From assembly GCA_001793095.1 (NCBI GenBank), contig MGHG01000009.1, positions 221,849 through 285,848 of the forward strand: DNA of 64,000 nucleotides, read 5' to 3'. Position 1 is the stretch's first letter; each line of letters opens with the position of its first letter. The notes under the pieces are model-generated. The model worked only from the letters and a program-made list of their open reading frames with translations. It was not told the DNA's origin and searched no databases. The translations under genes were made by a program, and so were the position numbers. Shown piece after piece: positions 31,444 through 64,000 of the stretch. The stretch comes from Candidatus Woesebacteria bacterium RIFCSPLOWO2_01_FULL_39_23 (GTDB taxonomy: Bacteria > Patescibacteriota > Microgenomatia > UBA8517).

Positions 31444-31444
31444 T

Positions 31445-32524: not shown

Positions 32525-32536
32525 TCTCTATTTATA

Positions 32537-33931: not shown

Positions 33932-33938
33932 TTATTTA

Positions 33939-35012: not shown

Positions 35013-35018
35013 AATAAT

Positions 35019-35807: not shown

Positions 35808-35812
35808 TATAT

Positions 35813-41800: not shown

Positions 41801-41812
41801 GACTTTATCACT

Positions 41813-45739: not shown

Positions 45740-46072
45740 TCAATTTTTTGCTCCGAGGGGAAGTTTTTTTACTGCGACAACAAACCTGGCCGGGTACAGC
45801 TTTACAAGGTGTTTTATATATTCATCATTAAATTCCTGATAATTTTCCATATCAGTTAGAAAAACTTGTGCAAAGACAATATTTGAAGCATCTAATCCTG
45901 CATACTTTAACTCTACCAAAATATTATTCATTGTCTGAGATATTCTTTCCGCAATCATTCCTTCTAACACTTTCCCTCGGGGTGTAAATTCAATTTTTCC
46001 AGAAAAGAAAACCAAATCTTTTGTCTCGATAAATGGAGTAAATGGTAAATCTGCCATAGTTAGTTTAATCAA
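45740..46072 (-). CDS. RidA / YjgF / endoribonuclease L-PSP family protein
   Basis: FSGKIEF...ISQTMNNILVELKYAGLDASNIVFAQVFLTDMENYQEFNDEYIKHL..YPARFVVAVKKLPLGA matches the RidA fold motifs (SGQ-like start, PAR..V.V..LP C-terminus). Confidence 0.65.
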   Translation of the reverse strand: MIKLTMADLPFTPFIETKDLVFFSGKIEFTPRGKVLEGMIAERISQTMNNILVELKYAGLDASNIVFAQVFLTDMENYQEFNDEYIKHLVKLYPARFVVAVKKLPLGAKN

Positions 46073-48022: not shown

Positions 48023-49313
48023 GAATTATTAACTTCGCCACCTCTAGTCCATTTTCTACCGCATAATTAGTACCCCTGTCCCACGGATACACCTGCTGAA
48101 TATTGGATAAATATAAGCCTTGGATCGGTGTCACAAACGGTGGAATAGACTTCGAATAATTTAAAGGAAGTATCGGTTGTGCAAAAGGCGTTTTGAATAC
48201 ATAAATATTATTTATCCATGACTTTCGAAACTTCGGATTAATTTTATTTAGATACGGATAAAAAATACCGAATAATTCATCATCAGTTTTTTGAAAATAG
48301 TCATGATTATGAGGCAGGTAGTTACCTATGTACATTAAATGCGCGTTATCATAATACTCTTTATTCATATAATTCGTGTGTTCGACCACTGCTAAGAAGG
48401 GGAAGTTTAAATCGTTAATATTTAACCAATAAGTTCCATCCTCTAAAAATTGATGCTTCAAAGAAATCACCATATTTATCGCACCCAAACCTTTGAGCGG
48501 AGACAACTTTGCTTTATAGTTTATTGGTAAATCCACGGCCATTTTTAGAAAAAGAGGTGTCGGGAGCGTGCAGATTACTTTATCGAATTCATATTTTCCA
48601 TTTCCAGTTGTAATCGTTATTTTTCCATTCTCTTCTGAGATTTTATAAACCGACGTATTATAAAAGATCTTGCCGTCATTTTTTCTTATTACTGTATCGA
48701 GTCTTTCCGCAAAAGCCAAAAATCCCCCCTTAGGATAACCGAGCGAGCTACTTCTTTTATTAATTCTTGTCCAAAACCATGCAGCAGAAATCTCATCCGC
48801 ATAGTTACCAAACTTTTTCTCAAAGAGCGGTTGCCATAAAACCTTCCATGAGGTGTTACCCATGTATTTAGTTAAAAAAGATTTCGCTGTGATTTTTTCA
48901 AGTTTCTCCCAATCACGAATCATTTTCAAATATGCAATTACTGCACCAGTTCTTATGCGTTCCCGAAGAGGAAGAGCGGTAAATTTCATGAGGCTCATCG
49001 GAGTATCAAGTTGATAAATTTTCCCATGATAATACGTGGATGTTTTAGGTTGTAAGTAAATTAATTCTTGTCCGATCTCTTCAGCTAAATTTCTTATTGC
49101 CCAGTCTGAATAGAACAAATGATGGTAGTGTTTCTCAATAGTCCATTTCCACTTTGGCTCTTTAAAACCGATTGCAAGCCCACCCGGTTTTGTGTCTGCT
49201 TCAAAAACAGTTACATCACTACCTCCTTGTGCAAGTTTGTATGCACTGGCCAATCCCCCGAAACCTGCACCGATAATAGCAACTTTCATAGGATACTGAA
49301 ACAAGTTCAGCAT
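48015..49313 (-). CDS. FAD/NAD(P)-binding oxidoreductase (amine-oxidase / phytoene-desaturase / protoporphyrinogen-oxidase-like)
   Basis: MKVAIIGAGFGGLASAYKLAQGGSDVTVFEADTKPGGLA dinucleotide-binding motif. 432 aa. The substrate is unknown. Confidence 0.55.
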   Translation of the reverse strand: MLNLFQYPMKVAIIGAGFGGLASAYKLAQGGSDVTVFEADTKPGGLAIGFKEPKWKWTIEKHYHHLFYSDWAIRNLAEEIGQELIYLQPKTSTYYHGKIYQLDTPMSLMKFTALPLRERIRTGAVIAYLKMIRDWEKLEKITAKSFLTKYMGNTSWKVLWQPLFEKKFGNYADEISAAWFWTRINKRSSSLGYPKGGFLAFAERLDTVIRKNDGKIFYNTSVYKISEENGKITITTGNGKYEFDKVICTLPTPLFLKMAVDLPINYKAKLSPLKGLGAINMVISLKHQFLEDGTYWLNINDLNFPFLAVVEHTNYMNKEYYDNAHLMYIGNYLPHNHDYFQKTDDELFGIFYPYLNKINPKFRKSWINNIYVFKTPFAQPILPLNYSKSIPPFVTPIQGLYLSNIQQVYPWDRGTNYAVENGLEVAKLIIHD

Positions 49314-49323: not shown

Positions 49324-50991
49324 TCAATTCGCTACTGCTTGAAAATATTTATATCCGTTTGTTCCATAAATTTCTTGAACAATGTTAGCTTCATTAGGTA
49401 TCTCTTCGTCTGTTCCGATTATAAGGCTTTTTGGGTAAGTAAGCCTATCTCTATCCCAATTTATGGATAAAAAGTGGTATTTGTCAAAACTTCTGACGGT
49501 CGAGAATTCATATGCGTCGCGGGGAGTTAAGTTGTGTTCTTTTTGAAATCTTGCCGGTGGGTATTTAAAATAGAAAAGAAACAAAATATAGGGCTGGTCA
49601 TACCTGTCAGTAACGACGATATTGTCATATCTATCCTGATTCTCTTTGACAAAAGTAACGAGTTCCTTTATACCGTACTGCGATGAATAAGGATACTCTT
49701 TAGACATATGATACCAGTACATATTTAAGTACCTTGAAAAACTCCAAATTCCCAAAAGTCCAAATACCAAAAAACCAGTAACCCCTAACCATTTCAGCTT
49801 TACGGTTGATAATCTATTTAAAGAGTATGCGAATCCAAAAGCAGTTATTATAGTCAGTGGAATGACCATATTTTGACTGCGCAACGCATGAGGAGATTGA
49901 AAAGTGAGAGCCGCAGCAGTCGGAGCAATTAATAACCACCATAGAATTAGGTAGTAGGGCTTAGTATGTAGGGAGTAGGTCCTGAAAAAATAAATTAATC
50001 CCAAGATAATAAATAGAATGTCAAATAAATACATTTGCCCTGTTTCGGGTACGGCGTTTCTTTGAATTACATCTCCCGATATAAATAGAAATCCACCACT
50101 ATAGTGATCACTCCAATTCTCTAAAAATGCTAAGCCGTAATTAACCGGTCTATTGTGTAAGAATAATGCTGGAAGTCCTCTAATATTCTCGTGTTCGCCG
50201 CGTTGTTCGTTTATTCTGGCCAGCGGGCCGGGATCTGACAAAAGCCCCACACCGGCAGCCCGGGAGGCTACGTCCCCTTTTATTAAATCCAACCCGAGGG
50301 GGATGAGAAGCAAGAATGCAATAGTACCTGTTATTGCGATCTGTTTAATATTTTTACGTATTTCATATCTGTAAATAACAAGTAGTCCAAAAAGTAAAAG
50401 CGGAACGACAACCCGAGCTGCATGATATGTGTATAAAGAAAGCACAAAACTAAGTGCTGATAACATTAAGAGTGGCAAGCTGCCCTTGCCTTTCAAAAAT
50501 AACCACAAACCCAAAACCATAAAAAAGGTTGCGACATTTACTTCCCAACCTCCCCGGGAAAAATGAATATGCCACGGCGAGATTGCGAGTATCAGCGATG
50601 CAATCGAAGCCAGTACATCAGCATTCATCTGTTTATGGATCTGCGTAAATCCTTCCCTAAATAACTCCTTAACTAATAAATACATTAGTAAAACGGTTAA
50701 TACACCCAACATAGCACCCGGAATCCTTACAGCCCATTCGTTCAAACCCAGTACTTTGACGAATGGAACAACCATATAAAAATAAAGTCCTGGTTTATAA
50801 TCATTGAAGGATTGAAAGTGTATCGGCCAAGGATTACCGTGTTCGTCACGACCGGTTTGAATTAACGAATATGCATTATAACCTATTGCCGCCTCATCGG
50901 CATTTAGTGCAGGATAAGAATTTAATTTATAGAATCTCAAAACAAAAGCCAAAATAATAATCAGAATTAAGACTAGTTTATTTTTATTCAT
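49324..50991 (-). CDS. ArnT/PMT_2-like GT-C membrane glycosyltransferase (paralog 1)
   Basis: LNADEAAIGYNAYSLIQTGRDEHGNPWP follows TM1, then about 12 TM helices and a C-terminal soluble domain. Confidence 0.65.
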   Translation of the reverse strand: MNKNKLVLILIIILAFVLRFYKLNSYPALNADEAAIGYNAYSLIQTGRDEHGNPWPIHFQSFNDYKPGLYFYMVVPFVKVLGLNEWAVRIPGAMLGVLTVLLMYLLVKELFREGFTQIHKQMNADVLASIASLILAISPWHIHFSRGGWEVNVATFFMVLGLWLFLKGKGSLPLLMLSALSFVLSLYTYHAARVVVPLLLFGLLVIYRYEIRKNIKQIAITGTIAFLLLIPLGLDLIKGDVASRAAGVGLLSDPGPLARINEQRGEHENIRGLPALFLHNRPVNYGLAFLENWSDHYSGGFLFISGDVIQRNAVPETGQMYLFDILFIILGLIYFFRTYSLHTKPYYLILWWLLIAPTAAALTFQSPHALRSQNMVIPLTIITAFGFAYSLNRLSTVKLKWLGVTGFLVFGLLGIWSFSRYLNMYWYHMSKEYPYSSQYGIKELVTFVKENQDRYDNIVVTDRYDQPYILFLFYFKYPPARFQKEHNLTPRDAYEFSTVRSFDKYHFLSINWDRDRLTYPKSLIIGTDEEIPNEANIVQEIYGTNGYKYFQAVAN

Positions 50992-52691
50992 CTTTTTTCT
51001 AAAATCCTAAACGCAACCTTGCCGTTTAAATATCTTATTTCTCTTATTTCACTAAAATCGAATTTAGTGAAGTCAGCATGGATTCTATCCGCATTTCCTA
51101 CAACTATATAGGATTTTGTGGCTCCAATATGGGGAAAACTATAATCCTCAAAACGAATATTATCCAATCTTTCGACTTGGCCCACATCACCCCTATACAC
51201 ACTCTCTTTTAACTTGGCCTTGCTTTGATAGAGTATTGGGTCATATTTTCCATAGAATAGAAAGTAGATATAAGGTTGTGCAAATGTTTGCTGGACAATA
51301 ACCTCGTTATATTCATCCTTAATAGGAGATACCACCTCGACAATCTGTTTATATCCATACTCCCAAAGTTTTGAATCGTGATTTGGAAGATGTACAAAAT
51401 AAGAATCAAAAAAATAAATCAAACTTCCGACATAAAGTGCAGTTAGAAGTATGTAGCTGGTAGCTCGGATAAATGCATGGGTTTTAATATTCTGCAACCA
51501 TAAAATTATTCCATTTAGACCAAAGGAAAGAATTATTATAAGTGGGATTACCATATTCATCGATCGTATCGCATGTACTTCATTGCGCGAAAGAACAGAT
51601 GGCAAAGGCGCGAATATAAGCCACAACGATACAAATAATATTTCTTTCATTAGTTTTCTTTTACATAGTACAATTAAACCCGCTAATAAAAATATTGCAT
51701 CCGTCATTAATAACATACCCTGATGTGGCGAGGAATGCCGCGGATTTGACCAATCACCTTCAAAAAATAAAAACCTGCTCGACATATGGTTGAACCACCT
51801 CCCCATTATTCCTCGAAAATAATTTAATGATTCGGTATGAAATAAATAATAACGTAAAGAACCGACTTTATCGTTATCCTCACTCAAGAATTTTTGTAAT
51901 TGATCGCCCGGCCTTGGATAAGAAAAAACGCTAAAAACAGTTAGCCTCCCCGCTTCTCCATTAACATAACTTTTGATAACGGGTACTAAACATAGACTAA
52001 CAATTAGCGTGCTTATAATCACAGGCTTAGAGGCGGGTTTAAAAACACCCCAAAAACTTTTCCAATATATAATCATCAGCAATGTCACAACTATTAAAGT
52101 AGAGAGCTTGGTACCCTGATATGTAATAAAAGTTAACGCAAAAAAGAGTACCGAGTAAATTAGAAATTTTGGCTTTCGAAAAGATTTGAGAAAAAAAAAT
52201 ATCCCAGCTAAGGTTAAAGTAAGGGCAACGTTTGCTTCCCAGGCTCCTCTAGAAAAATATATTAACCACGGTGTAATAGAAGAAATAAATGCGGATAATA
52301 TTGCAAGTCGACGATTGCCGAACAATTCTTTTGTAATTAGATAAATTAAGTAAACCGTTATTATCCCTGCCGTTGCGCTCGGGAGTCTAACGGAATATTC
52401 GTTTAACCCCAAAAGAGCGATGAAGGGAGCAGCTAAATAAATATAAAAACCAGGTTTGTAGTCCCCGAAAGATTTAAAAATAATCGGCAATACTTTCCCG
52501 TATTCGTCCCGACCGGTATTCAAAATTGAATATGCGTTATATCCGAGAGCGGCTTCGTCGGGGGTCAAGCTCGGAGGTATGCTCCCCAACTTCCATAGTC
52601 TTAATAAAACTGATAACAGAATAATAAAAAACAATAACATAGTACTGGTTTTGAGTTTTAAGTTATGAGTTCTAAGTTTATTTATTTTCAT
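50988..52691 (-). CDS. ArnT/PMT_2-like GT-C membrane glycosyltransferase (paralog 2)
   Basis: LTPDEAALGYNAYSILNTGRDEYGKVLP. The start is placed at the internal MKINKLRT. Confidence 0.65.
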   Translation of the reverse strand: MKINKLRTHNLKLKTSTMLLFFIILLSVLLRLWKLGSIPPSLTPDEAALGYNAYSILNTGRDEYGKVLPIIFKSFGDYKPGFYIYLAAPFIALLGLNEYSVRLPSATAGIITVYLIYLITKELFGNRRLAILSAFISSITPWLIYFSRGAWEANVALTLTLAGIFFFLKSFRKPKFLIYSVLFFALTFITYQGTKLSTLIVVTLLMIIYWKSFWGVFKPASKPVIISTLIVSLCLVPVIKSYVNGEAGRLTVFSVFSYPRPGDQLQKFLSEDNDKVGSLRYYLFHTESLNYFRGIMGRWFNHMSSRFLFFEGDWSNPRHSSPHQGMLLMTDAIFLLAGLIVLCKRKLMKEILFVSLWLIFAPLPSVLSRNEVHAIRSMNMVIPLIIILSFGLNGIILWLQNIKTHAFIRATSYILLTALYVGSLIYFFDSYFVHLPNHDSKLWEYGYKQIVEVVSPIKDEYNEVIVQQTFAQPYIYFLFYGKYDPILYQSKAKLKESVYRGDVGQVERLDNIRFEDYSFPHIGATKSYIVVGNADRIHADFTKFDFSEIREIRYLNGKVAFRILEKR

Positions 52692-54408
52692 ATATTTCAA
52701 AAGCAGTCTTTCCATCCAAATAATTAACGGTTTCTAACTTGTTCCAATTCATCGGCACATTTCCCGGACTAGTTATCAACATACAATTTATTTTTTTGCA
52801 CTCAAAGCCGCCCCCGTATTCCATCTTCCATAGTCCATCTTCTAGTTTCGGTATATCCCAGTCATTAACAAAATAAAATTTGTCGAACCGATCAACCCAA
52901 TACCAGTTAGACTGATGGAAACGAATTAGATTCGGATCGTTTTTATATTGTTGCGGATCCCATGGCCAAAAGAAAAGGAGAAACTCGTGGGGTTCACCGT
53001 ATTTTTTCGTAACGATAATTTTATCGTACTTACCGTAATTTACCCTTGCATAATTTATAACCTCTTTATACCCGTACTGCCAAGACCATGAGTAGTTTAA
53101 TCTGTAATTCCCAAAATAATTCCTCAAATATGCATAAACAGAAATTCCTAGGAATGTGAAATATATAATTGCAGCAAGTGGTGCGAATGCTTTGAATGTG
53201 TGATAACTTATCCAGTACTTCATACCGGCTGTAACCCTTCCCTTAACCATCCATTCCCAAATCGTAGCTAAACCAAATGCAGATAACAACATTGGCAGAG
53301 GTAGCATTGTTGAGGCCCTCGTTACAGCAAATGTTTCATTAGTAATACTTCCCGATATCGGACTTAATAAAAGCCAAGTTAATATTAATAAGTAGTCCTT
53401 CGATCCTTTGATGGCATTTTTTATTACTAAAAATATACCCAGGTAGAAAAAGGGTAAGTTAACAAGATACGATAAACCAAAACCCGGAAGGTTATATTGA
53501 TATTGAGTCCCTCCTTTAAAAAAGAGAAACTTCGGTGAAAAATATCCAAGAAAATTCGAGGTAAATTTTGTAATAAAATATGTCGGACGGTTATAAACAA
53601 ATCTTGCAATTTCATAAGGAAGAGTAGAAGCTTCACGCTTTTCAATAATACGATTGATCGCAGCCTGGTCGATAATAAAGAGCCACTTCGACCTAGCTCT
53701 CGAATTCGGATCGATTAAAATAACTACCGAGACTAGAAAAAAAACAATTATTGAAACAATAAATATTAATGAAATTAATCCTTTCCTCAAATATTTCTCT
53801 TTGAAATCATTTCTGAATATAAAAAGAGTTACTATAACTAAAAGCGGGGAAAAAATGCGCGTCGAATGATACGAAAATAATGTCAGAAACATTAATATGA
53901 ATGAGGCGGGAAGAAGAAATTTACTTTTGTGTTTATTGAAAAAGGCTGCCATGCCTGCGGTGAGTAAAAATATGGAAAGGTTTTGTTGGAGTACTATCCT
54001 TGATGTAAATAAAGTCCATGGTTCCAATACGACCAAGAGTGTTGTCAATAGTGATATGCCCCTGCTTTTAGTTAACGCATATGCTAAAAAATAGGCAGCG
54101 AGGGCAGTTAGTATACCCAAGATTGCATGCGGTAAACGTATTGAGAACGTACTTAATCCCAGAGCCGCAACGTAAGGAATAGTTAAATAAAGGTTTAAGG
54201 GAAGGGGATAATCTCCATAAGCTCGAAAATTTAAAATCGGAATCTTTCCCCATTCATCCGTTCCTGTTTTCAAAAGTGAATAAGCGTTATAGCCATGAGA
54301 GATTTCGTCCCACGACACAGATGGCGGATTTTCGCTAAGGTTAAACACTCTTAAGATAAATCCTGAGATTAGAATAATGGCCAAAAGTATATATATTCTT
54401 CTATTCAT
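52678..54408 (-). CDS. ArnT/PMT_2-like GT-C membrane glycosyltransferase (paralog 3)
   Basis: VSWDEISHGYNAYSLLKTGTDEWGKIP. Confidence 0.65.
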   Translation of the reverse strand: MNRRIYILLAIILISGFILRVFNLSENPPSVSWDEISHGYNAYSLLKTGTDEWGKIPILNFRAYGDYPLPLNLYLTIPYVAALGLSTFSIRLPHAILGILTALAAYFLAYALTKSRGISLLTTLLVVLEPWTLFTSRIVLQQNLSIFLLTAGMAAFFNKHKSKFLLPASFILMFLTLFSYHSTRIFSPLLVIVTLFIFRNDFKEKYLRKGLISLIFIVSIIVFFLVSVVILIDPNSRARSKWLFIIDQAAINRIIEKREASTLPYEIARFVYNRPTYFITKFTSNFLGYFSPKFLFFKGGTQYQYNLPGFGLSYLVNLPFFYLGIFLVIKNAIKGSKDYLLILTWLLLSPISGSITNETFAVTRASTMLPLPMLLSAFGLATIWEWMVKGRVTAGMKYWISYHTFKAFAPLAAIIYFTFLGISVYAYLRNYFGNYRLNYSWSWQYGYKEVINYARVNYGKYDKIIVTKKYGEPHEFLLFFWPWDPQQYKNDPNLIRFHQSNWYWVDRFDKFYFVNDWDIPKLEDGLWKMEYGGGFECKKINCMLITSPGNVPMNWNKLETVNYLDGKTAFEIYENK

Positions 54409-56068
54409 GTTTTTTCTTCAAGATAAGCAAACCAGCTAGTGCGAAACCGGCCAAACTTAAAAAATCTGTAAATAATCTGAATGGTGTCTCTTTCCAATAA
54501 ACACGTACCGTCGCAGGCGTACCATCTAAATGAATTTTGATATTCCCGTTCGGTTCTTTTATTTCAGTAGGCACTTCATTACCATTTACTTCTGCATACC
54601 AGCCGGGGAAATAATAGGAGTTAAAATACAAATCGCCTTTGCCGTTAACCTCTGCAGTGTAATCAATACTTGTATGTTCCGTAATACCAATTATAACTAA
54701 ATCATCAGATGTGAATTTTGCTGATTGGAGTTCAGAGGGTCGATCTCTTGCCCAGACGGGTAATAACAAATAATCTTCGCTATAATTTTTATATATCAAG
54801 CTTTCTTGTGATTTACCTGCGGATAACCGATTAGCAAAGAAGCGTTTCAAAAAATAATTATCATCGGGATTATAATACTCACTTGGCTTAAAATAAGCCA
54901 GTCCAGCCAATAAACTAAACATAATTAGCACAATTAATAATATTTTCCCGATTTTTGTGCGACTATTAATGAAGATCACCATGCTTGAGGTTAAAAAAGC
55001 GGTCAACATAAGAAGTCTCCAGGGGAATTGAATAAACTTGGACAAAGTTGAAATCTCCCAAATAAAAGTTGATCTGATGTTCATCATAAACAAAATCAAC
55101 AACGTCGCCGCGAGAAAAATAGTAGCCTCTATGTTTTTAAGTCCCTTTTTATATACAAAAATAGCAGTTACGATAATCAATGAAATATTCACAAGTCCAA
55201 TTTGAAAAGACATGTCATCATAAACGCCAGGGTTTGATGCTCCGTATCCCCACGAAGGAATAATCAGTTGTTTAATGAAAGGAAAGTGATCTTTATAATT
55301 AAAGGGTGTAATACTTACCAGATATTTTTGTTCTATTAAAGATGGCATCCAAAAAAAAGCACTTATCAGAAATCCGACAATAATACCTTCAAATATTTTA
55401 ATATAATTTCTGTTTTTAAAAGTTGTTAAAGATATAATAAATCCGTAAATAAACACACCCGGCATAAAAATTAATGGTGCAAGATTGTGGCTTAATATAA
55501 GTAAGGCCGTAAATAAACTCAAAAATCCTATGTCTTTCGTTTCGCCTGATTTAGCAACTTTGTAAACAAAATAAGCTATCAAGGGAAAGAAGATAAAAGC
55601 ATACAATTCCCCCAAAGCGCCCCTTATATAAAGGTCAACGGCACGGTAAGGCGTAAAAGTATAAACCAGAGCTCCCGTAAAGCTTGTCAATTTATCCGCG
55701 TGAAGTCTCAGCCATTTATACATAAGCATCGAAGATGCCGGAATAGTTAACAGGAATAGCATTTTAAGAGATATAACCAACGAGCCGGTAAGTTCATAAA
55801 ACAATGCACCTATATAAAAGGGTAGTGGGTAATAAAAATTAAATAGTGGATAACCATAGTTATAACTCATATCCGGTGCCCACCGCGGAGGGATCTGACC
55901 TGACCCGATTGCCCTAATCATTTGATATAAATTAGCAATGTGGGGTTCATCCGAAAAATAATAAAATCCCCGATGCAAGAGGGGTAAGCTTGCCGGTATT
56001 ATAAATACAAGTAACAGTACTAACCAACCGGTGTCAGACCAAAACAGGTTTTTTGTAAATTTTTTCAT
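54401..56068 (-). CDS. Polytopic membrane protein, putative GT-C glycosyltransferase of a distinct subfamily (GYGYPL / QFPWR signature)
   Basis: YFSDEPHIANLYQMIRAIGSGQIPPRWAPDMSYNYGYPLFNFYYPLPFY ... FIQFPWRLLM. Paralogous to 56065-57828. Confidence 0.45.
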   Translation of the reverse strand: MKKFTKNLFWSDTGWLVLLLVFIIPASLPLLHRGFYYFSDEPHIANLYQMIRAIGSGQIPPRWAPDMSYNYGYPLFNFYYPLPFYIGALFYELTGSLVISLKMLFLLTIPASSMLMYKWLRLHADKLTSFTGALVYTFTPYRAVDLYIRGALGELYAFIFFPLIAYFVYKVAKSGETKDIGFLSLFTALLILSHNLAPLIFMPGVFIYGFIISLTTFKNRNYIKIFEGIIVGFLISAFFWMPSLIEQKYLVSITPFNYKDHFPFIKQLIIPSWGYGASNPGVYDDMSFQIGLVNISLIIVTAIFVYKKGLKNIEATIFLAATLLILFMMNIRSTFIWEISTLSKFIQFPWRLLMLTAFLTSSMVIFINSRTKIGKILLIVLIMFSLLAGLAYFKPSEYYNPDDNYFLKRFFANRLSAGKSQESLIYKNYSEDYLLLPVWARDRPSELQSAKFTSDDLVIIGITEHTSIDYTAEVNGKGDLYFNSYYFPGWYAEVNGNEVPTEIKEPNGNIKIHLDGTPATVRVYWKETPFRLFTDFLSLAGFALAGLLILKKKHE

Positions 56069-57828
56069 GACGTCCTCCCCCGAGTCAGACTCGGGGGTTT
56101 CCCTAAGGAGGATGACTTGTCAGAGTTCAATTCACCCCCGGCCTGAAGGGCAGGGTTTTCTTGAACATTGTTATAAAGAATGTTATTTATAATTATTAAA
56201 AACATCGAGACTAAACTTACTATTGAAACCATATCGCCGGCAGTTCTCGGAAAAGAATTATTAAGACTTGCGTAAACAACATAATGCCCCTTGGTTAAGT
56301 CAAATTTTGGGAGTCCCAGGGTCCCGGAATTTGTATAAGGTATATCCGTATCGTTTGCGCTAATCTTCCAAACCGGGAAAGAATACGCAGGTAAAGCCAG
56401 TTCCGCCATACCGCTTTCTACAATTAAATCATATTTAAACCAATTACTACCTTTTATCGATGATTTTAAGTTAATTTCTCCGGTTAAGGGGATTAATCCT
56501 TCGGGTGCTACGTCATCGGGTGCACGCGACGCACTTTTTGGGAGGTAATCATAAATACTTGCAGTTAACTGTCTTTTCAAATTTTCGCCGCTAAGTTTTT
56601 CAGAATCATTTATAAAAAACCAATCTTTCGGTTTAAACATCCGCGAATAAAAAATAAGTATAATAAATATCGTAGCTAACGAGGAAAAGATTAAGAACTT
56701 GCCCTTAGACTGATTAAGAGCAAAACCGGCGAAAAAGGAAGATATAAAAATCGGCATCATAAGGAATCTCCAAGGAAACTGAAGAAATTCAAGAAAAGAT
56801 AAATTTTGCCAGATAAATATTGATTTGCTGTGAGACATAAACGCATAACCTAAAAAGCCCATCATACCGAATAAAAATAACGCCAAATTTAGTTTACGTT
56901 TGTTCACTTTAACAATTAATACCATTAAACCAGTAATAACTGCCAAGGTATGAATTGGGCCAATACCTAAAAAGGCATCGTCCCCTGCTCCGATAACCGA
57001 AGGGCCATAACCCCAATGAGTAAATACGAATAATTGACTAACGCTAAGAAAGTGTTGAAGGTAACCGAAATAACCAGCCGTCAAAGTCTCTACATGCACC
57101 AAATTTCTTTCATAAATAAGTGGTATTAAGAAAAAAGATGATAATCCTACACCTAATAATGAATACTGAAAAAGATCAATAAGTGCCTGCGATCTAACTT
57201 TGTAAAACTTTAATCGAAGCACAACCCAAATTAAAAAGATCGGAAGTACGATTAATACGGTCAGGTTGTGTGTTATGAAAAATATCGAGAGCGATAAAGA
57301 AAGTATTATTCCGGAAATTTTGCTTTTTTTCGCCAAATAATTTTCAAGTGCCCAAAAGATGAGTGGAACTACAACCAGCCCCCAACTCTCACCCATCGCA
57401 CCGCGAACATAAATTCCAGCAGCTCTCATCGGTGCGTAAATATATAAAGCAGTCGTTGCAAAAGATACATATTGTTTAAAAAATCTTCTTGAAAATAAAT
57501 AAAAAAACAGGGCAGAAAAAATAACGCTCAAGATAAAACCCGCTTTTACTGAATTAATTAACGATATCCCCAACAAATGAATTCCCTCCATGATGTAGTA
57601 CGGAAGCGGAGCATAATATATATAAAGCGGATAGCCATAACCTAACCCTAAATCCGGCACCCACCGGCAAGGAATTTGGCCATCCCTGAGGCATTTATCC
57701 ATCTCCCAAACACGTACAACCTGCATATCATCATACATTGAATAAAACCCACCTTTAAATAACGGAAATATTGCTGGAAGACACAGCAATAATAAAGTAA
57801 ATGCTGTGATGATGTTTTTCTTGAGCAT
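56065..57828 (-). CDS. Polytopic membrane protein, putative GT-C glycosyltransferase (paralog of 54401-56068)
   Basis: YSMYDDMQVVRVWEMDKCLRDGQIPCRWVPDLGLGYGYPLYIYYAPLPYY ... FLQFPWRFLM. The start is placed at the internal MLKKNIITAF. It has a C-terminal periplasmic-type domain and a low-complexity tail. Confidence 0.45.
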   Translation of the reverse strand: MLKKNIITAFTLLLLCLPAIFPLFKGGFYSMYDDMQVVRVWEMDKCLRDGQIPCRWVPDLGLGYGYPLYIYYAPLPYYIMEGIHLLGISLINSVKAGFILSVIFSALFFYLFSRRFFKQYVSFATTALYIYAPMRAAGIYVRGAMGESWGLVVVPLIFWALENYLAKKSKISGIILSLSLSIFFITHNLTVLIVLPIFLIWVVLRLKFYKVRSQALIDLFQYSLLGVGLSSFFLIPLIYERNLVHVETLTAGYFGYLQHFLSVSQLFVFTHWGYGPSVIGAGDDAFLGIGPIHTLAVITGLMVLIVKVNKRKLNLALFLFGMMGFLGYAFMSHSKSIFIWQNLSFLEFLQFPWRFLMMPIFISSFFAGFALNQSKGKFLIFSSLATIFIILIFYSRMFKPKDWFFINDSEKLSGENLKRQLTASIYDYLPKSASRAPDDVAPEGLIPLTGEINLKSSIKGSNWFKYDLIVESGMAELALPAYSFPVWKISANDTDIPYTNSGTLGLPKFDLTKGHYVVYASLNNSFPRTAGDMVSIVSLVSMFLIIINNILYNNVQENPALQAGGELNSDKSSSLGKPPSLTRGRTS

Positions 57829-57900
57829 GTGAATCGGCTTTTTTAGTCTAAGCACTATATTCAATTGTAACACCCCCTTAATGCTTGTTAAAATATAACG

Positions 57901-58725
57901 GTGAAGTTGAAAAAAATAATTATATTTCTCGGACTAATCTTTTGGCCTCTGACCCTATTATTAGCGAACACCCCATTGGATCTGATACGCTACTTGTTAC
58001 CGGCATTGATATTACTATTTTCTTTCAATCTCTTCCAAAAAGGTAAAAATTACTTCGAATATCCGCTTTTGTTCATATCGTTAATTGAACCCAAACTAAC
58101 ACTATTTCCACTTATTTTTGCCTTGATACTATATATAACCGACAAAAAACATATAACCCTAAGACGAAGTTCAGTAGTCCTCCTGATATCAATCGCTCTT
58201 ATCGTTACTAATTTTTTTGAATTGTCACGACAAACTATCTTCGTCAAAGATTATGAAGCACAACAAAAAGTCCTCAGAAATATTACCCTGTATCCAAATG
58301 TGTTAACTGCCAGGATCTTTCAAAACAAAGCCAGAATTATCATCAACAAATTCGATGATAATTTTTTTACGCTAACAGATCCGAATAATTATTTTTTCAG
58401 TAATCACCCAAGGGAAGATATCTTAGCGAATCAAAACTTAATAAAATATCCTTTTCTGGCTATTATTCCGTTTTTTATCGGAATCTATTTTATTTCTAAA
58501 AATAATGACCGGAAATTTATTATAATATCAGCAGTTGCAGCATTATTAACCCTAACACTCCTGACAAACTTCGACCGACACGATTTTGTTTTATGGGTTC
58601 CCGTATCGCTTATATTTACTGATGGGGTTAAGAAAATGGCGAAAAAAAAATATTTTACGGTTTTCGCTTCCATTTTTCTTATCATCTCATTTATTGAATT
58701 AATCCGTGCATACTACCTTTTTTAA
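57901..58725 (+). CDS. Hypothetical polytopic membrane protein
   Basis: 274 aa with about 6 TM helices and a probable GTG start. It lies immediately upstream of, and is co-oriented with, an ArnT-like gene. Confidence 0.4.
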   Translation: MKLKKIIIFLGLIFWPLTLLLANTPLDLIRYLLPALILLFSFNLFQKGKNYFEYPLLFISLIEPKLTLFPLIFALILYITDKKHITLRRSSVVLLISIALIVTNFFELSRQTIFVKDYEAQQKVLRNITLYPNVLTARIFQNKARIIINKFDDNFFTLTDPNNYFFSNHPREDILANQNLIKYPFLAIIPFFIGIYFISKNNDRKFIIISAVAALLTLTLLTNFDRHDFVLWVPVSLIFTDGVKKMAKKKYFTVFASIFLIISFIELIRAYYLF

Positions 58726-58727
58726 AT

Positions 58728-60407
58728 ATGACTAAAAAAATATCTTTACTGATTTTAATTTTGGCAATACTACTTGCCGTAATTACCCGATTATATAAAT
58801 TAGGCGAGGCACCTCACGGACTATATGTCGACGAAGCCGGACAGGGTTATAGCGCATACTCCATTTTAAAAACCGGTAAGGACGAGTTTGGGATGCCCTA
58901 CCCTTTTGTTTTTAGATCTTTTGCTGATTTTAAAACACCTGTTTATATTTATTTAATTGTTCCCTTAATTCCGGTTTTCGGTCTTACAATTTATGCTGTT
59001 CGGTTTCCTTCTTATTTCTTCAGTATTCTCACTATCATCCTAACCTACTTACTGATTATTGAAATTGCACCCAAAAAGTACAAATACTCGCTTGCCTGTG
59101 TAAGTTCTTTGTTACTTGCCGTTTCCCCCTGGCATATACTCTTTGGCCGGACCAACTTCGAATGCAATGTTGGTCTTTTCTTTTTACTAGGTGGTGTTTA
59201 CTTTTTCTATCTCGGCCTCAAAAAACCCATGTTTATCGTTTTGTCTTCCGTTTTCTTTGCTATTGCGCTTCCGGCTTATCACTCCCAAAGAATTGTTGCC
59301 CCGCTTACCCTTTTAGCATTAACACTTAGGCACAGAAAAGAACTTTTCTTAAAGACCAATACAAAATACCTAATAATTGCCGCCACTGTGGGTTTTCTGA
59401 TAACCTTACCCACCCTTTCTGTTGCTACAACTCCGGGCTTTTTAGCTCGAGCAACCGGTCTAAATATTTTTTCGACCGTTAGGCGGACTCCTTCCGGAAC
59501 ACTTGACGAAGTTAGGGGATTATCATCTTTTTTCGTGAATAACAGAATGTTCCTCTCTTCTAAAGAATTCCTTGCGTTATATCTCGCATATTATTCCCCT
59601 AGAAATATGTTCGTGCTTGGAGATTACGGCCTGAGAAGTTCATTTCCCGATCTTTCAACCTTCTTCATGTGGCAATTCCCGTTTTATATCTACGGAGCTT
59701 ATTTGTTTTTCAAAGAAAAAATGCTTGGTGAGCTTAGATCTATCGTCTTAACACTTTTTTTTATAGCTCCGATACCCGCTGCCGTTACAATAGATCCTTA
59801 TACTACAATCAGATCAATACCGCTTGTTATCCCCCAGCTAATATTTATTGCATTCGCCATAGTTTATGCTTTCGAAAAAATCAAAGACAAAAAGAGTAAA
59901 TATTTCTTTTACATATCTTTCGTTGTAATTCTCATATATTCAATCGCAAAACTATACAGTTCAGTAATCATCATCAATGAATTCTACCGAGCACAAGCTT
60001 GGAATTACGGTTGGGAAGAAGTCGTAGATGTTATAACAACCCGTCTTGATCCCAAAATCCCCATTGTAATAGATAATGCACGGGAAGACGGCTACATCCA
60101 ACTTCTATTTTTCTTAAAATATGATCCGGCAACTTACCAGAAATCAAATAACGAAGTTGCTCTTTCCGAATATTATACAAACATGCAACGCGTCGATTCA
60201 CGACAGATCGGAAATATCACTTCAAGGAAAATAGATTGGACTCCCGACACCATGAAAGAACAATACTTAATTGGGGATAATTTAGCAATATCGAACGAGC
60301 AAATAAAACTTCACTATTTAACCCCCATTACTGATATATTTTATCCCGACGGCAGCACGGCCTTTCGCGTGGTAAAAACAAACCCGAATCTAAAGCCAAG
60401 ACTGTAA
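58728..60407 (+). CDS. ArnT/PMT_2-like GT-C membrane glycosyltransferase (paralog 4, plus strand)
   Basis: LYVDEAGQGYSAYSILKTGKDEFGMPYP. Confidence 0.65.
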   Translation: MTKKISLLILILAILLAVITRLYKLGEAPHGLYVDEAGQGYSAYSILKTGKDEFGMPYPFVFRSFADFKTPVYIYLIVPLIPVFGLTIYAVRFPSYFFSILTIILTYLLIIEIAPKKYKYSLACVSSLLLAVSPWHILFGRTNFECNVGLFFLLGGVYFFYLGLKKPMFIVLSSVFFAIALPAYHSQRIVAPLTLLALTLRHRKELFLKTNTKYLIIAATVGFLITLPTLSVATTPGFLARATGLNIFSTVRRTPSGTLDEVRGLSSFFVNNRMFLSSKEFLALYLAYYSPRNMFVLGDYGLRSSFPDLSTFFMWQFPFYIYGAYLFFKEKMLGELRSIVLTLFFIAPIPAAVTIDPYTTIRSIPLVIPQLIFIAFAIVYAFEKIKDKKSKYFFYISFVVILIYSIAKLYSSVIIINEFYRAQAWNYGWEEVVDVITTRLDPKIPIVIDNAREDGYIQLLFFLKYDPATYQKSNNEVALSEYYTNMQRVDSRQIGNITSRKIDWTPDTMKEQYLIGDNLAISNEQIKLHYLTPITDIFYPDGSTAFRVVKTNPNLKPRL

Positions 60408-60439
60408 ATCTTCAAAGAAATAGACCCTGAAAAATAATA

Positions 60440-60970
60440 TTACTCCCCAAATAATTTATGACCATGTAAAAATTCATTCCAATACTTTACCCATAAAGGT
60501 GTCACCTCATGCTGATACTGAATGGCATCTTGGAGGTTGTTGTAGACCTTAACCTGGTATTGGGTGAAATTTCTGATTTCTTTTGTCCAAATTCTTCTTG
60601 CTGCGTTAAAGTTCTTTCTACCTTCCCAACTAACCCCAGAAAGTCGCTCCTTTATTCTCTCAATTTGACCTCGAATAATTTCCGGTAACTCTGGTAAGTT
60701 TTTTTCCCAATCCATTCGAATATACAATGAAGCTTTTGCGTATTCTGTCCTATGCGGAAGATAAATATTTTTATAACCAAAGGAGTTCTCATCATCACCT
60801 ATGATGCTTGCCAATACATTACCTAGTAGCAATTTATTTGTATCTAACCCCAACTGTGGAGAAATATGCCTCAGCCAGTCGCTATGAAGAGGTCCTGCTA
60901 TTGCCCAAGTTAACGGATTTTTCAGATCGGGTCTTGTTAAGTGAGGTGGCTGTTCAATTTCAAGCGACAT
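60440..60970 (-). CDS. Hypothetical soluble protein
   Basis: 176 aa with no TM helix and no recognisable family motif. Confidence 0.35.
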   Translation of the reverse strand: MSLEIEQPPHLTRPDLKNPLTWAIAGPLHSDWLRHISPQLGLDTNKLLLGNVLASIIGDDENSFGYKNIYLPHRTEYAKASLYIRMDWEKNLPELPEIIRGQIERIKERLSGVSWEGRKNFNAARRIWTKEIRNFTQYQVKVYNNLQDAIQYQHEVTPLWVKYWNEFLHGHKLFGE

Positions 60971-62259
60971 TAGCCACGATTATATCTCTTTAGTTTTAAC
61001 ACATTCAACTTGATGAATAGAAAAACAAAAACGAGCAAATTAATTACTGCTATTATATTCATAAAGAGCATGTTTTTATATAAATTCTCCAAAGATGTAA
61101 ATGAGGGTGCCCAGAATAAATAATAAATGTTAGCCAGGTGTGTTAAAGAAAGAATTATATAAGGTGTAATTAGTGTCGGAAGAAACGCCAAAGTAACGGT
61201 CGCATATGGGAAAAAGGGGTATAAATACCTCGGATGAATTCTGGTCATAAAAAGAAAGGAAATTAAACTACTCATCGCCAGAAGTAAAAATATATTTTTA
61301 GGAATCAAACTTTTTCTCAGGTAATAAATGGCCAAAATAACAAGCATCAAAAAAATCATCAAGCCATATGTTCTTGCTGATATTCCTAAAAATTGCGTCG
61401 AGTCTAGCACTCTCCCGGGACTAATAAGCCACCAGAAATTAAAGGCATTTGCGGTCAAAAAACCAATCTCACCCGGCAAGATTCTGTCTTGATACAATTT
61501 AACGAACCACATGGGAAAATCTGAATATGGGTGGAACCAAATTCCTATAGTAATAACTGTGGCTAACGACATAATAATTGCTTTAAGCCAAGAATTAAGT
61601 TTATGTTTTTGCATGATTGCAACCATTCCGAGTACGGGCATAAAAACAGCCAACGATGCCTTAAAAAGAAAACTTAAGGTAAAAAATAATGCAAATCGAA
61701 GAAGATTATTGTTGAGCAATGCAAAAACAGCCAGTAATCCGAAGAGATTTACAATCGCATCTGTCTGCCCCCACACAGCGGAGTTATACCATGTAAGCGG
61801 ATTAAATAGCCAAATCGCTGATAATAAAACCGCCAATCTGCTCTTGTTGGTTTTGTGGATGATATAACGATAAATCATCCATCCGATACACAAGTCTGCA
61901 AAAATACTCGGAAGTTTGACCAAAAGTGTCATGCCTCTTTGCTCCCAAAACCATATAAATGCAGATGGGAAAAATCTAAAGCTATCATTTAGATTTAAAG
62001 CAAGAGCATAAACAACTTTCCAGATACCACTTAAAGCTGTGAACATTAAAATATAGAGAGGTGGTTGATTTGGTTGAGAGTATGGCCATCCACCGGTAGG
62101 AATTTTATCGTATAGGCCATTTAAACCCCTCTGAAGGGCGATACCACCCCAGGATATATTGTTATTCAAATCCCCGTGATAAGCACTAAAGATAAGCGAA
62201 AGTCTTAAGACAAAGGCTAAAGCTAAGACAAAAAATAGGTATTTTTTAGATAACGGCAT
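60970..62259 (-). CDS. Polytopic membrane protein, putative GT-C glycosyltransferase
   Basis: 429 aa with about 11 TM helices. The first extracytoplasmic loop reads YHGDLNNNISWGGIALQRGLNGLYD...GGWPYSQPNQPPLY. Confidence 0.4.
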   Translation of the reverse strand: MPLSKKYLFFVLALAFVLRLSLIFSAYHGDLNNNISWGGIALQRGLNGLYDKIPTGGWPYSQPNQPPLYILMFTALSGIWKVVYALALNLNDSFRFFPSAFIWFWEQRGMTLLVKLPSIFADLCIGWMIYRYIIHKTNKSRLAVLLSAIWLFNPLTWYNSAVWGQTDAIVNLFGLLAVFALLNNNLLRFALFFTLSFLFKASLAVFMPVLGMVAIMQKHKLNSWLKAIIMSLATVITIGIWFHPYSDFPMWFVKLYQDRILPGEIGFLTANAFNFWWLISPGRVLDSTQFLGISARTYGLMIFLMLVILAIYYLRKSLIPKNIFLLLAMSSLISFLFMTRIHPRYLYPFFPYATVTLAFLPTLITPYIILSLTHLANIYYLFWAPSFTSLENLYKNMLFMNIIAVINLLVFVFLFIKLNVLKLKRYNRG

Positions 62260-62262
62260 TGA

Positions 62263-63975
62263 TCAAAGGTCTTTTCCTTCCACAATTAAATACGCAGGTC
62301 TTCCGCTCGGGTAGTAGATGGTTTTTATTGCGGGAACGTTATACTTAAATTCGTCGGGTTTACCTACCACAAGCACGTTTTTGTCCCTGTATGACGAGTT
62401 AATACTCCCAAAAATATATTTTCCCAATCTGTAACCATCTAACTGATCTAAAAATTTATAACCATTTTGTTCATAGACCAACCAGCTTTTAGATTCATTT
62501 TGATAATCTACTGGATCCCATTTTTCAAAAAAAGCAATCCAGATATTAGGAACCGAAAGTGTCCGACTCACAACAATATTGTCGTATCGGTATTCTATAC
62601 TAGCAACATACTTCACCGTCTCTTTTATACCATAATGCATACTCTCAGCACTTTGTACTGGTGCATGATAAATATAATTCTCCGTAAACTTGGCAATATT
62701 AAAAATTGCTAAAAGACTAAAAATACCAATCAGAACATATTTGAAAGTTAAAGGCCTGATGCTGTTTTTTAAACCTATCCATAACACGAATGCACCATAT
62801 GCAGAAATAACCTGAATTGCAGGCATCATCAACGCAGCCCGATTTGCAGCGTACCCAGGACCTTTGGTTAATGCTGCAGGTATTGGCGAAAGAATAAGCC
62901 ATAATAAGAAAAAATTCATATATTTAAAACCACGCTCCCTAACAAAAGCGATAAGCGCAGCAAACACAAAAACAGATTCGAATAAGTACAAAACCCCCTG
63001 ACCGGGAATCATCCCGTAGGTCCACTCTCCCGCTCCCTGAATAAACAAATAGTACGGAGATATGTAGGTAAAATAATTAGTTGTAAAAAGTTCAAAGACG
63101 TAGACGGCTTTATTTGAAAAAACCCTGGATATTAAATCGGGTAGTCCCTGAAGGTATGCAACGTAGCGCCTATCCGCAACTGCCTGCCACTTGTCGGTCG
63201 GGTTTAATATTGTCACGTCCAGGGGGCGTGCTGAGGCTTTACCGATTGTTGAAAAACATGCCGGAATAATAAATAAAAGTAATGTTACTGTCGATATAAC
63301 AACCCAAGTTCGATATTTTTTTTCTCTAACTAATTTCATTAACGCTTCGGCGTTTACATAGATCAGAAGTGCTAACATCGGGGGTACAAAAAATCTTGCG
63401 GCATGATAACTGAAAAGACTCAGGCCGAATGTTAAAGCGGATACAACTAACCATTTAGGATTACGTAACCCCTTCCAAAAAGAATAAATCCCAAACGGTA
63501 TAAAAAAAGTTGTTAAATTTGCTTCAAACGCGCCCCTGGATAAAGGTAGGTGCCATGGTGAAACTGCCAAGAGAGTAGCTGCCAGAATTTCCAAATTCCA
63601 TCCGCCGGTTGGCGGACCGATTTCCAATTTACTGTCACCCCTTCTTAACTCTTTGACCAGCAGATAAGTAGCGTATATGGCTAACGTACCAATTACGGCA
63701 TTAGGTAGCCGCACGGCAAATTCATTAAGTCCGAATAACGCAATTGATGGAACCGCAAGGTATGAGTATAGCGGCAGTTTAAAATCACCAAACGAGCGCA
63801 ATGATAACGGCAGGTATTCTCCCCAGGAATCGCGTCCTGTTTTTAAAATAGAATAAGCATCATAACCTATCCCCGCCTCATCCTGGGTAAATCCTGTCGG
63901 ATAAGATGTTAAGTTATACACTCTTAAAAAAAATCCCAGTGCAATTATAAAAAAAAGGAACGTTTTAGCTTTCAT
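62263..63975 (-). CDS. ArnT/PMT_2-like GT-C membrane glycosyltransferase (paralog 5)
   Basis: FTQDEAGIGYDAYSILKTGRDSWGEYLP. Confidence 0.65.
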   Translation of the reverse strand: MKAKTFLFFIIALGFFLRVYNLTSYPTGFTQDEAGIGYDAYSILKTGRDSWGEYLPLSLRSFGDFKLPLYSYLAVPSIALFGLNEFAVRLPNAVIGTLAIYATYLLVKELRRGDSKLEIGPPTGGWNLEILAATLLAVSPWHLPLSRGAFEANLTTFFIPFGIYSFWKGLRNPKWLVVSALTFGLSLFSYHAARFFVPPMLALLIYVNAEALMKLVREKKYRTWVVISTVTLLLFIIPACFSTIGKASARPLDVTILNPTDKWQAVADRRYVAYLQGLPDLISRVFSNKAVYVFELFTTNYFTYISPYYLFIQGAGEWTYGMIPGQGVLYLFESVFVFAALIAFVRERGFKYMNFFLLWLILSPIPAALTKGPGYAANRAALMMPAIQVISAYGAFVLWIGLKNSIRPLTFKYVLIGIFSLLAIFNIAKFTENYIYHAPVQSAESMHYGIKETVKYVASIEYRYDNIVVSRTLSVPNIWIAFFEKWDPVDYQNESKSWLVYEQNGYKFLDQLDGYRLGKYIFGSINSSYRDKNVLVVGKPDEFKYNVPAIKTIYYPSGRPAYLIVEGKDL

Positions 63976-64000
63976 CGGCTTATTTCTGTATAGACATAAA

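Follow-up and report, generated by a model that had tools for sequence, protein, structure and literature searches.

At its right-hand end, the window (the whole stretch of 64,000 nucleotides analysed here) carries a run of related membrane glycosyltransferase genes, which raises the question of what kind of enzymes they encode, how old the copies are and what they make together. All five ORFs that an earlier note had recognised by a shared motif were found in place (paralogs A to E, Table 1). The stop and start codons of the tandem triplet A-B-C overlap, as had been described, by 4 nt (A/B) and 14 nt (B/C), and the intergenic overlaps and gaps of the triplet operon range from -14 to +10 nt. 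The suspicion that the array continues past the right edge was also borne out, in that a rightward extension of the contig revealed a sixth paralog (L001:8322-10004), which bears the motif GDEIDVGLQAYSILTTGKDYLG and overlaps the start of paralog D by 4 nt. An alternative ATG at 52715 would lengthen paralog B to 575 aa, and paralog E is paired with the polytopic protein gene upstream of it.

Table 1. Genes and motif sites of the array, its operon neighbours, the candidate synthase operon and other GT-C genes; values in brackets are Pfam bit scores.
Feature	Position	Strand	Length (aa)	Remarks
Further PMT_2/PMT GT-C	7512-8954	-	480	Pfam PMT_2 5.2e-14, PMT 6e-6
Distant PMT_2 GT-C	14689-16143	-	484	Pfam PMT_2 8.3e-12; DE kept (LWLDEAIG), full motif not
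Distant PMT_2 GT-C	25040-26665	-	541	Pfam PMT_2 1.7e-7
Polytopic protein	38574-40031	-	485	Downstream end of synthase operon; Pfam PMT_2 2.1e-4, below cutoff
TuaG-like GT2	40024-40803	-	259	NCBIfam TuaG 8.5e-24, full length
DUF2304 small membrane protein	40800-41147	-	115	Pfam PF10066 2.9e-16
DPMS/PpgS/AglJ-like polyprenyl-phosphate glycosyltransferase	41144-41800	-	218	Catalytic domain only
Different PMT_2-type GT-C	41813-43030	-	405	Directly upstream of DPMS-like GT2; Pfam PMT_2 2.4e-6
Partner GT2	47129-48022	-	297	Last gene of operon; Pfam GT2 3.7e-20
FAD oxidoreductase	48015-49313	-	432	PRK07233 family, CrtI/HpnE-like; NCBIfam NF005560 1e-133
Paralog A	49324-50991	-	555	PMT/PMT_2-branch GT-C, last GT-C gene of operon; Pfam PMT (30.6)
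Signature motif, paralog A	50836-50898	-		DEAAIGYNAYSLIQTGRDEHG; regex match
Paralog B	50988-52691	-	567	Pfam PMT_2 4.4e-10 (40.4), PMT 1.3e-9 (38.4)
Signature motif, paralog B	52497-52559	-		Regex match
Paralog C	52678-54408	-	576	Pfam PMT 8.2e-11 (42.4)
Signature motif, paralog C	54247-54309	-		Regex match
PTPS_related polytopic membrane protein	54401-56068	-	555	Pfam PF10131 3.2e-15
PTPS_related polytopic membrane protein	56065-57873	-	587-602	First operon gene; Pfam PF10131 1.5e-7
Polytopic membrane protein	57901-58725	+	274	2 nt upstream of paralog E; weak EpsG 6e-4, below cutoff
Paralog E	58728-60407	+	559	Strand opposite to other paralogs; Pfam PMT_2 1.1e-6 (29.4)
Signature motif, paralog E	58830-58892	+		DEAGQGYSAYSILKTGKD; regex match
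Soluble protein	60440-60970	-	176	Last gene of paralog D operon; no family match
Polytopic membrane protein	60970-62259	-	429	Downstream of paralog D; no Pfam match
Paralog D	62263-63975	-	570	Pfam PMT_2 3.4e-6 (27.8)
Signature motif, paralog D	63820-63882	-		Regex match
Sixth paralog, 3' end	63972-64000	-	560	Remainder past right window edge

The motif was searched for in the six-frame translation as the regular expression DE.{3}G.{2}AYS.{3}TG.D, and five matches were obtained, one in each gene, at a distance of 31-45 residues from the N-terminus. In the alignment of the five paralogs, D32, E33, G37, Y38, A40, Y41, S42, T46, G47, D49 and G52 are invariant; D32, E33, D49 and D64 are retained in all six paralogs, and at the second acidic pair of the motif paralog D has DS in place of DE. 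Across 59 sequences D32-E33 is invariant, and in a set of 150 representatives with pairwise identities of no more than 50% the strict motif occurs in 120; it is a family signature rather than a local coincidence. It lies within the Pfam PMT match and aligns with D31-E32...G..D in loop 1 of E. coli ArnT (GT83, undecaprenyl-phosphate-L-Ara4N:lipid A transferase), among the closest known systems, so the proposed homology to the ArnT/PMT DE loop holds. Loop-1 motifs of ArnT are required for its function (PMC5377068); RYA and YFEKP of that loop are absent from the paralogs, where the aligned positions read IGY/NAY and SFNDY. The five paralogs can be aligned end to end at 29-35% identity. Among the six paralogs of this genome conservation peaks in loop 1 (48%), and the C-terminal domain ranks with the least conserved regions (23%). 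Outside the motif they had been called diverged, C-terminal domains included, which is correct as to identity; the C-terminal domains are nevertheless homologous, not unrelated.

Each of the five paralogs scores above the Pfam gathering threshold for PMT (PF02366, 22.7) or PMT_2 (PF13231, 26.1). The AF2 model (pLDDT 86.9, pTM 0.89) has the GT-C helical core of a polytopic membrane protein, with acidic residues opening the first extracytoplasmic loop after TM1; D32-E33 come after helix 3-20. About 11 TM helices are predicted per protein, with the invariant DE in a loop whose placement outside is deduced from the positive N-terminus, and the C-terminus would form an extracytoplasmic alpha/beta domain of 120 residues that is specific to the subfamily. 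Pfam matches and structure comparison thus uphold the assignment to ArnT/PMT_2-like GT-C enzymes. Since neither a profile of the five paralogs nor a single paralog retrieved a relevant homolog from the PDB by sequence search, the relationship to PMT and ArnT depends on the fold and on Pfam scores of 28-42 bits. In NCBIfam the ArnT model was not matched, and Agl23 was matched weakly by two paralogs and by none of the others. At E<=1e-30 the subfamily comprises 5,639 clusters at 50% identity, and it is typical of Microgenomates (candidate phyla radiation, CPR).

We consider it probable that the paralogs are catalytically intact members of one large PMT/PMT_2 (GT39/GT83)-related subfamily and act as linkage- or acceptor-specific transferases of lipid-linked sugars at the outer face of the membrane. 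Their topology, donor class, acceptor and division of labour we infer as follows. Outside the membrane, each paralog would take a sugar from a donor linked to polyprenyl-phosphate and add it to an envelope glycoconjugate under construction; the DE loop would be the catalytic and donor-binding site, and the divergent outer loop and C-terminal domain would fix acceptor or linkage specificity. The paralogs are co-transcribed with two PTPS_related membrane proteins and the partner GT2, whose probable product, made at the cytoplasmic face, is the lipid-linked primer or substrate. Candidate synthases of the lipid-sugar donor are the DPMS/PpgS-like GT2 with its DUF2304 neighbour (41800-40800) and an ArnC/GtrB-like GT2 beyond the window. 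There is precedent in three-component systems and in acceptor binding by the C-terminal domains of GT-Cs (PMC11127046), and in PpgS with Rv3632 and the GT-C Rv3779 (PMC9671496).

The most constant companion of the array is the partner GT2, of which a counterpart was found in 49 of 49 related loci, within 3 kb downstream in 47 of them. Its best PDB sequence matches are GmaR and SunS, its C-terminal half has no family match, and similarity rules it out as a DPM1-class synthase. This gene, co-operonic with the triplet, had been missed by the earlier note, as had the two PTPS_related GT-C genes of the same operon and the 429-aa polytopic protein. The PTPS_related gene that overlaps paralog C by 8 nt has an ortholog in locus L008 at 49% identity, and the first gene of the operon has one there at 54%. 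The FAD oxidoreductase lies between paralog A and the GT2, and in the same place in L008 (61% identity); its pairing with an SDR as a DprE1/DprE2-like epimerase was rejected because the enzyme is CrtI/HpnE-like rather than VAO-like and occurs in only 4 of 49 loci. The 429-aa protein is 26% identical to a weak PMT_2 protein at L001:1857-3242 and 32-35% identical to two genes beside the paralog D ortholog in L005, and has a homolog in 21 of 49 loci.

The array is part of an island of glycan genes that spans at least 76 kb and includes a dozen or more membrane proteins of GT-C type. Other products of the window are a Bac_transf initiating transferase, Wzx, a Wzy_C protein, GDP-mannose genes, seven GT4 and seven GT2 proteins, and the polysaccharide genes of the island include sugar methyltransferases. 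The more distant relatives reported at 25040 and 14689 both match Pfam PMT_2; further PMT_2 genes, at 7512, 41813 and, weakly, 20780 and 38574, had been overlooked.

It is unlikely, in our view, that the paralogs are instead protein O-glycosyltransferases like the bacterial and fungal PMTs, working as isoforms, possibly as heterodimers like Pmt1-Pmt2, on Ser/Thr of secreted, S-layer or pilin proteins emerging from the membrane. Pfam PMT is the best or only match for three paralogs and, as in GT39 PMTs (fungal Pmt1/2/4, bacterial Pmt), covers nearly the whole N-terminal profile (3-236 of 245 positions in paralog C); DE-x3-G at the opening of loop 1 and the occurrence of several paralogs, as in fungi, are further likenesses. 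The roughly 11 TM helices and outside C-terminus agree with what we take to be the PMT topology, translational coupling of the paralogs would fit hetero-oligomers, and GmaR and SunS, the best solved relatives of the partner GT2, are protein or peptide glycosyltransferases. However, a Pfam scan of the paralogs (E<=0.01) listed PMT and PMT_2 alone, with neither MIR nor PMT_4TMC, and unlike GT39 PMTs the paralogs have a unique C-terminal alpha/beta domain and a polysaccharide gene context: the island holds no candidate Ser/Thr-rich substrate gene and is dominated by genes such as those for Wzx, Wzy_C, Bac_transf, the GT4 enzymes and sugar methyltransferases. In structural score, moreover, ArnT, ALG12 and oligosaccharyltransferases (OSTs) equal or exceed PMT. 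An O-mannosylation-like system, as suggested earlier, may yet apply, but the missing MIR and PMT_4TMC domains speak against it.

The other earlier suggestion, a Gtr-type system scaled up so that one DPM1-like synthase feeds the same lipid-sugar to every paralog, the acceptor site being the sole difference between them, we regard as quite improbable. The synthase was correctly recognised as a DPM1-like polyprenyl-phosphate GT2 with a DUF2304 neighbour: it matches AglJ (1.8e-34) and PpgS (1.8e-31) of NCBIfam over full length and P. furiosus DPMS (5mlz, 1e-10), and is the only DPMS/PpgS-type GT2 within the window. The DUF2304 protein, with three hydrophobic segments in a hydropathy scan, is its candidate membrane partner; Rv3632 is presumably a member of the same family. 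Both genes are conserved in L005, as is the GT2-DUF2304-GT2 trio that includes the TuaG-like gene, and PMC3485146 gives a mycobacterial precedent for one synthase serving many GT-Cs (Ppm1 and PPM-dependent GT-Cs). Against this, the DPMS-like gene sits in an operon of its own between two other GT-C genes, and a second synthase, a GT2 with two C-terminal TM helices and full-length matches to ArnC (1.7e-46) and GtrB (5e-31), is encoded about 5 kb beyond the window edge (L001:4200-5150). The two belong to other operons, with 7.5 kb (DPMS-like) and about 5 kb (ArnC/GtrB-type) separating them from the closest motif paralog, and within 10 kb of the array a DPMS-like homolog was found in 10, an ArnC/GtrB-type gene in 1 and DUF2304 in 3 of 49 loci. 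The notion of a single donor synthase is weak. Because the invariant GT2 of the array is not of the DPM1/GtrB class, the link between these synthases and the array is one of proximity alone.

Nor does the locus support a Gtr-type operon. The GtrB-class polyprenyl-phosphate glycosyltransferase is present and not adjacent to the array, Pfam revealed no GtrA in nearly all window ORFs of at least 100 aa or in the L001 Pfam lists, no ArnE/F-type flippase turned up in either the window or the 10-kb extension, and synthase, flippase and GT-C are not encoded together; a DUF2304 or Wzx-type protein could stand in for GtrA. With Gtr-type systems (GtrA/GtrB/GtrC, CsbB/YfhO, GT136; PMC11127046) the locus shares GtrB/ArnC-like and DPMS-like GT2 genes near the array and the logic of a GT2-made lipid-linked sugar used outside by a GT-C on a finished or nascent glycan, whereas it differs in lacking gtrABC-like adjacency, in having three to six GT-C genes per operon rather than one and in its own GT2.

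Very unlikely, in turn, is an OST- or ligase-like transfer of preassembled glycans from polyprenyl-diphosphate carriers instead of single sugars from polyprenyl-monophosphate. In structure comparison OSTs are as close as ArnT or PMT, which leaves room for such a donor, and the full Wzx/Wzy-type pathway of the island makes donors of this kind. Right after the last TM helix, the C-terminal domain begins with a W-x-Y-G-Y-K-E stretch whose YG is invariant, at what we take to be the position of the OST WWDYG motif. The resemblance to WWDYG is partial (W-x-Y-G-Y), however, and Pfam gave no STT3 match; a profile search with the C-terminal domain found no OST, inspection of the alignment by eye revealed no DxD/ExD in the second outer loop, and sequence similarity favours PMT/PMT_2.

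The paralogs represent old orthogroups whose positions are conserved. Identity among the paralogs is 24-35%, whereas each of them is closer to its positional ortholog in three other genomes (41-64%), and their C-terminal domains are 23% identical between paralogs and 41-72% within orthogroups. Four orthogroups were recovered with bootstrap values of 77-93 (B 93, C 82, D 85) in a tree of which the ingroup clades alone were used, the distance to the ArnT outgroup being saturated. The order A-B-C is preserved in four genomes, and 48 of 49 species-level loci carry two to six motif genes, mostly in tandem, with the same type of array across Woese-, Ames-, Collier- and Shapirobacteria. Recent tandem duplication with diversifying selection on the copies, which might for instance vary the surface against phages or hosts, and to which the overlapping stop and start codons had pointed, is rejected as extremely improbable on these identities, the tree and the 49-locus survey.

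Beyond the probable role of the paralogs as lipid-linked-sugar transferases, we raise tentatively a broader possibility: the array and its invariant non-DPM1 GT2 might be a Microgenomates-wide assembly line, possibly with an A-D hetero-oligomer, that polymerises or branches a lineage-specific envelope glycan outside the membrane; its lipid-linked substrate would arise by a route not yet recognised, and the domain that binds the acceptor would have no known relatives. If so, it would be a CPR counterpart of mycobacterial arabinan and mannan synthesis. In the mycobacterial and corynebacterial cell-wall battery (PMC3485146), many GT-Cs likewise act on one envelope polymer with polyprenyl-phosphate sugars. 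The PpgS-Rv3632-Rv3779 GalN system (PMC9671496) similarly combines a short PpgS-like GT2 with a small membrane protein, and C. glutamicum cgp_0396 is, as here, an extra GT2 beside a PpgS-like pair. In contrast to the mycobacterial battery, the GT-C subfamily is a different one, the genes are tandem and translationally coupled, and the host, a CPR bacterium with a small genome, lacks a mycolate envelope.

The kind of enzyme is known, and the gene arrangement is undescribed but widely conserved; our literature search found no description of this GT-C expansion in CPR bacteria. The array holds no enzymatic surprise: it brings a known enzyme class and a known logic into a new lineage and a new arrangement of genes, standing for thousands of sequence clusters without a studied member. 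Its conserved operon, with A-B-C in order and one GT2, is a clonable gene set for reconstitution, and acceptor choice by GT-C enzymes can be approached through the C-terminal domains, which are specific to each orthogroup. CPR genomes measure about 1 Mb and encode very little biosynthetic capacity. Because these bacteria are thought to live attached to other cells, the glycans on their surface probably bear on attachment, phage recognition and survival. Despite such a small genome, this host devotes 76 kb or more to envelope glycans, and the array and its partner GT2 probably build or decorate a cell-surface glycan outside the membrane.

The genes 49324, 50988, 52678, 58728 and 62263 (named by start coordinate) are part of a conserved tandem array of GT-C paralogs that are predicted to be catalytically intact. 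All five open reading frames were found as the earlier note had described them, in a window with a GC content of about 35% and nearly all genes on the minus strand. A regular expression for the DE-containing motif behind the first TM helix gave exactly five matches in a six-frame translation of the window, and each of the five proteins contains the motif once, 31 to 45 residues from the N terminus. The proteins could be aligned end to end at pairwise identities of 29-35%, with D32, E33, G37, Y38, A40, Y41, S42, T46, G47, D49, G52 and D64 invariant (numbering of the 49324-50991 protein).

The proposed homology of this motif to the DE loop of ArnT/PMT enzymes was borne out, in that a check for non-homology came out negative: residues D31-E32 of E. 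coli ArnT pair with D32-E33 in a MAFFT alignment (PDETRYAEISREMLASG--DW against ADEAAIGYNAYSLIQTGRDEHG). The same ArnT loop contains RYA and YFEKP motifs that are needed for function (PMC5377068), and in this alignment neither is kept in the window's paralogs. Among 150 subfamily representatives with mutual identities of at most 50%, 120 matched the motif strictly, with the consensus DE[AV][AS]xGY[ND]AYS[IL]LKTG[KR]DE[YW]G. Judged from these sequences, the motif is a signature common to the whole subfamily.

In the Pfam scan, PMT and/or PMT_2 scored above the gathering threshold in every one of the five paralogs and were the only families hit, with no match to MIR, PMT_4TMC or STT3. NCBIfam gave a weak similarity to Agl23 and nothing else, and PDB sequence searches found no relative. 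The closest homologs, at 60-68% identity, are proteins of Woesebacteria and other Microgenomates, annotated, if they have a name, as hypothetical, "glycosyltransferase family 39 protein" or "ArnT-like". With E ≤ 1e-3, a search with a five-paralog profile returned 24,019 cluster representatives, of which 5,639 also passed E ≤ 1e-30; the best 150 matches were all full-length. Directly behind the last TM helix, the paralogs have an invariant Y439-G440 within a W-x-Y-G-Y-K-E stretch that is reminiscent of the oligosaccharyltransferase WWDYG motif; oligosaccharyltransferases were also among the top matches in fold searches with a paralog, and profile and domain-level searches gave no support for such a kinship.

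Coordinates of the features discussed
Feature	Position	Strand	Remarks
GT-C motif paralog	49324-50991
GT-C motif paralog	50988-52691
GT-C motif paralog	52678-54408
GT-C motif paralog	58728-60407
GT-C motif paralog	62263-63975
Start of C-terminal domain with W-x-Y-G-Y-K-E	49327-49686		equivalents in other paralogs
FAD oxidoreductase	48015-49313	-	NCBIfam PRK07233 family, 1e-133; CrtI/HpnE-like; between GT-C array and its GT2
GT2	47129-48022
176-aa soluble protein	60440-60970	-	last gene of operon with paralog 62263 and 429-aa membrane protein
Five-gene unit	38574-43030	-	GT-C, DPMS/PpgS-like GT2, DUF2304, TuaG-like GT2, weak GT-C; 4-8-nt overlaps
DPMS/PpgS-like GT2	41144-41800
Flanking GT-C genes	41813-43030 and 38574-40031
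2-Hydroxyacid dehydrogenase	46065-47048	-	in-frame TAG at 46734-46736
IS200-like Y1 transposase	44979-45659	+	Pfam Y1_Tnp, 8.9e-10

The suggestion that the tandem genes arose by recent duplication did not hold. The positional orthologs of 49324, 50988, 52678 and 62263 in three other genomes (loci L005, L007 and L008) were 64, 55, 41 and 41% identical, respectively, whereas paralogs inside one genome were only 24-35% identical, and a neighbour-joining tree resolved four orthogroups in which every genome is represented once (bootstrap 77-93). We found at least 600 motif stretches in species-representative genomes, the named records being from Woese-, Ames-, Collier-, Shapiro-, Davies- and Blackburnbacteria. 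In a survey of 49 related loci of at least 20 kb each, 18 contained five motif genes, 12 contained four, 12 three, 5 two, and single loci had one and six; for the most part, these genes lie on one strand at a spacing of about 1.65 kb. By these sequence comparisons, the tandem array is ancient. The records of loci L010-L089 are often titled "uncultured Gammaproteobacteria" or "Pseudomonadales" despite a Microgenomates-type operon, one being the 615-kb "chromosome" OZ246397.1, and these titles of related MAG records look like mislabels.

Three of the paralogs belong to a run of seven genes (57873 to 47129) whose junctions range between -14 and +10 nt, in the order two PTPS_related proteins, paralogs 52678, 50988 and 49324, the FAD oxidoreductase and the GT2, an order that is identical in L008. 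A homolog of this 47129-type GT2 was present in all 49 loci, at most 3 kb downstream in 47 of them. By similarity, this GT2 is not DPM1/GtrB-like. GmaR and SunS were its top PDB sequence matches, and no family matched its C-terminal half. Homologs of other partner genes were found in fewer loci: the 60970-like membrane protein in 21, the PTPS-like membrane protein in 20, the DPMS/PpgS-like GT2 in 10, the FAD oxidoreductase in 4, DUF2304 in 3 and the ArnC-like GT2 in 1. The FAD oxidoreductase is 61% identical to its L008 counterpart and, as a speculation, might modify the polyprenyl carrier. No family was detectable for the 176-aa soluble protein.

It had been suggested that the array may run beyond the right edge of the window, and contigs of up to 322 kb that bear the window sequence indeed contain a sixth paralog there, which shares 4 nt with 62263-63975. 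Next come a NUDIX-HAD protein, an asparagine-synthase-like protein and a GT2 of 316 aa. The GT2 has two TM helices at its C terminus and matches both ArnC (1.7e-46) and GtrB (5e-31) along its entire sequence. Because this ArnC-like GT2 lies outside the window, the single donor synthase of the earlier note was a window-edge artefact.

The GT2 taken for that synthase, 41144, is a DPMS/PpgS/AglJ-type enzyme consisting of the catalytic domain alone. With DUF2304 and a TuaG-like GT2 behind it, it forms a trio that is also present in L005, and two further GT-C genes flank the three. This arrangement is like that of PpgS-Rv3632-Rv3779 and the extra GT2 of C. glutamicum, Rv3632 presumably being a DUF2304 protein. 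In that system, Rv3779 is the GT-C supplied by PpgS and Rv3632, and C. glutamicum has a further GT2 (PMC9671496); Rv3632 is curated as a putative flippase (PMC8562490). The five-gene unit looks like a complete, self-contained extracytoplasmic glycosylation module apart from the motif paralogs.

The window in its entirety is a single glycan island, in which at least 27 genes encode glycosyltransferases (7 of GT4, 7 of GT2 and a dozen or more of GT-C type) and others encode Bac_transf, Wzx, Wzy_C, ManC, GMD and FkbM-type methyltransferases. Its left end lies just outside the window, at a DUF4012 gene followed by RecO, GlyRS and the dcw cluster, and glycan genes extend past the right edge; therefore, the island is at least 76 kb long. 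At 30000-36000, the GC content is 27-31%, in contrast to 35-38% elsewhere, and the four large open reading frames (30031, 31445, 32537 and 33939) have no Pfam family, two of them being 29-35% identical to each other; this could be a variable section of the island that was gained laterally. From 38 to 57 kb, the plus strand encodes nothing but the Y1 transposase, whose neighbours are an SDR and a RidA-like gene. The 2-hydroxyacid dehydrogenase gene is split into open reading frames of 104 and 172 aa by a single TAG, which could mean a nonsense mutation, a pseudogene or a sequencing error; in L008, the positional homolog is uninterrupted (310 aa, 34% identity). In the syntenic island of a related Woesebacteria genome, toxin-antitoxin and abortive-infection genes (PhdYeFM/ParE, AbiEii and DUF6922) are inserted at L005:13859-16776.

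We found no description of this GT-C expansion in the searchable literature. The paralogs are most likely linkage- or acceptor-specific transferases that use lipid-linked sugars on the outer side of the membrane, within a Wzx/Wzy-type glycan island.
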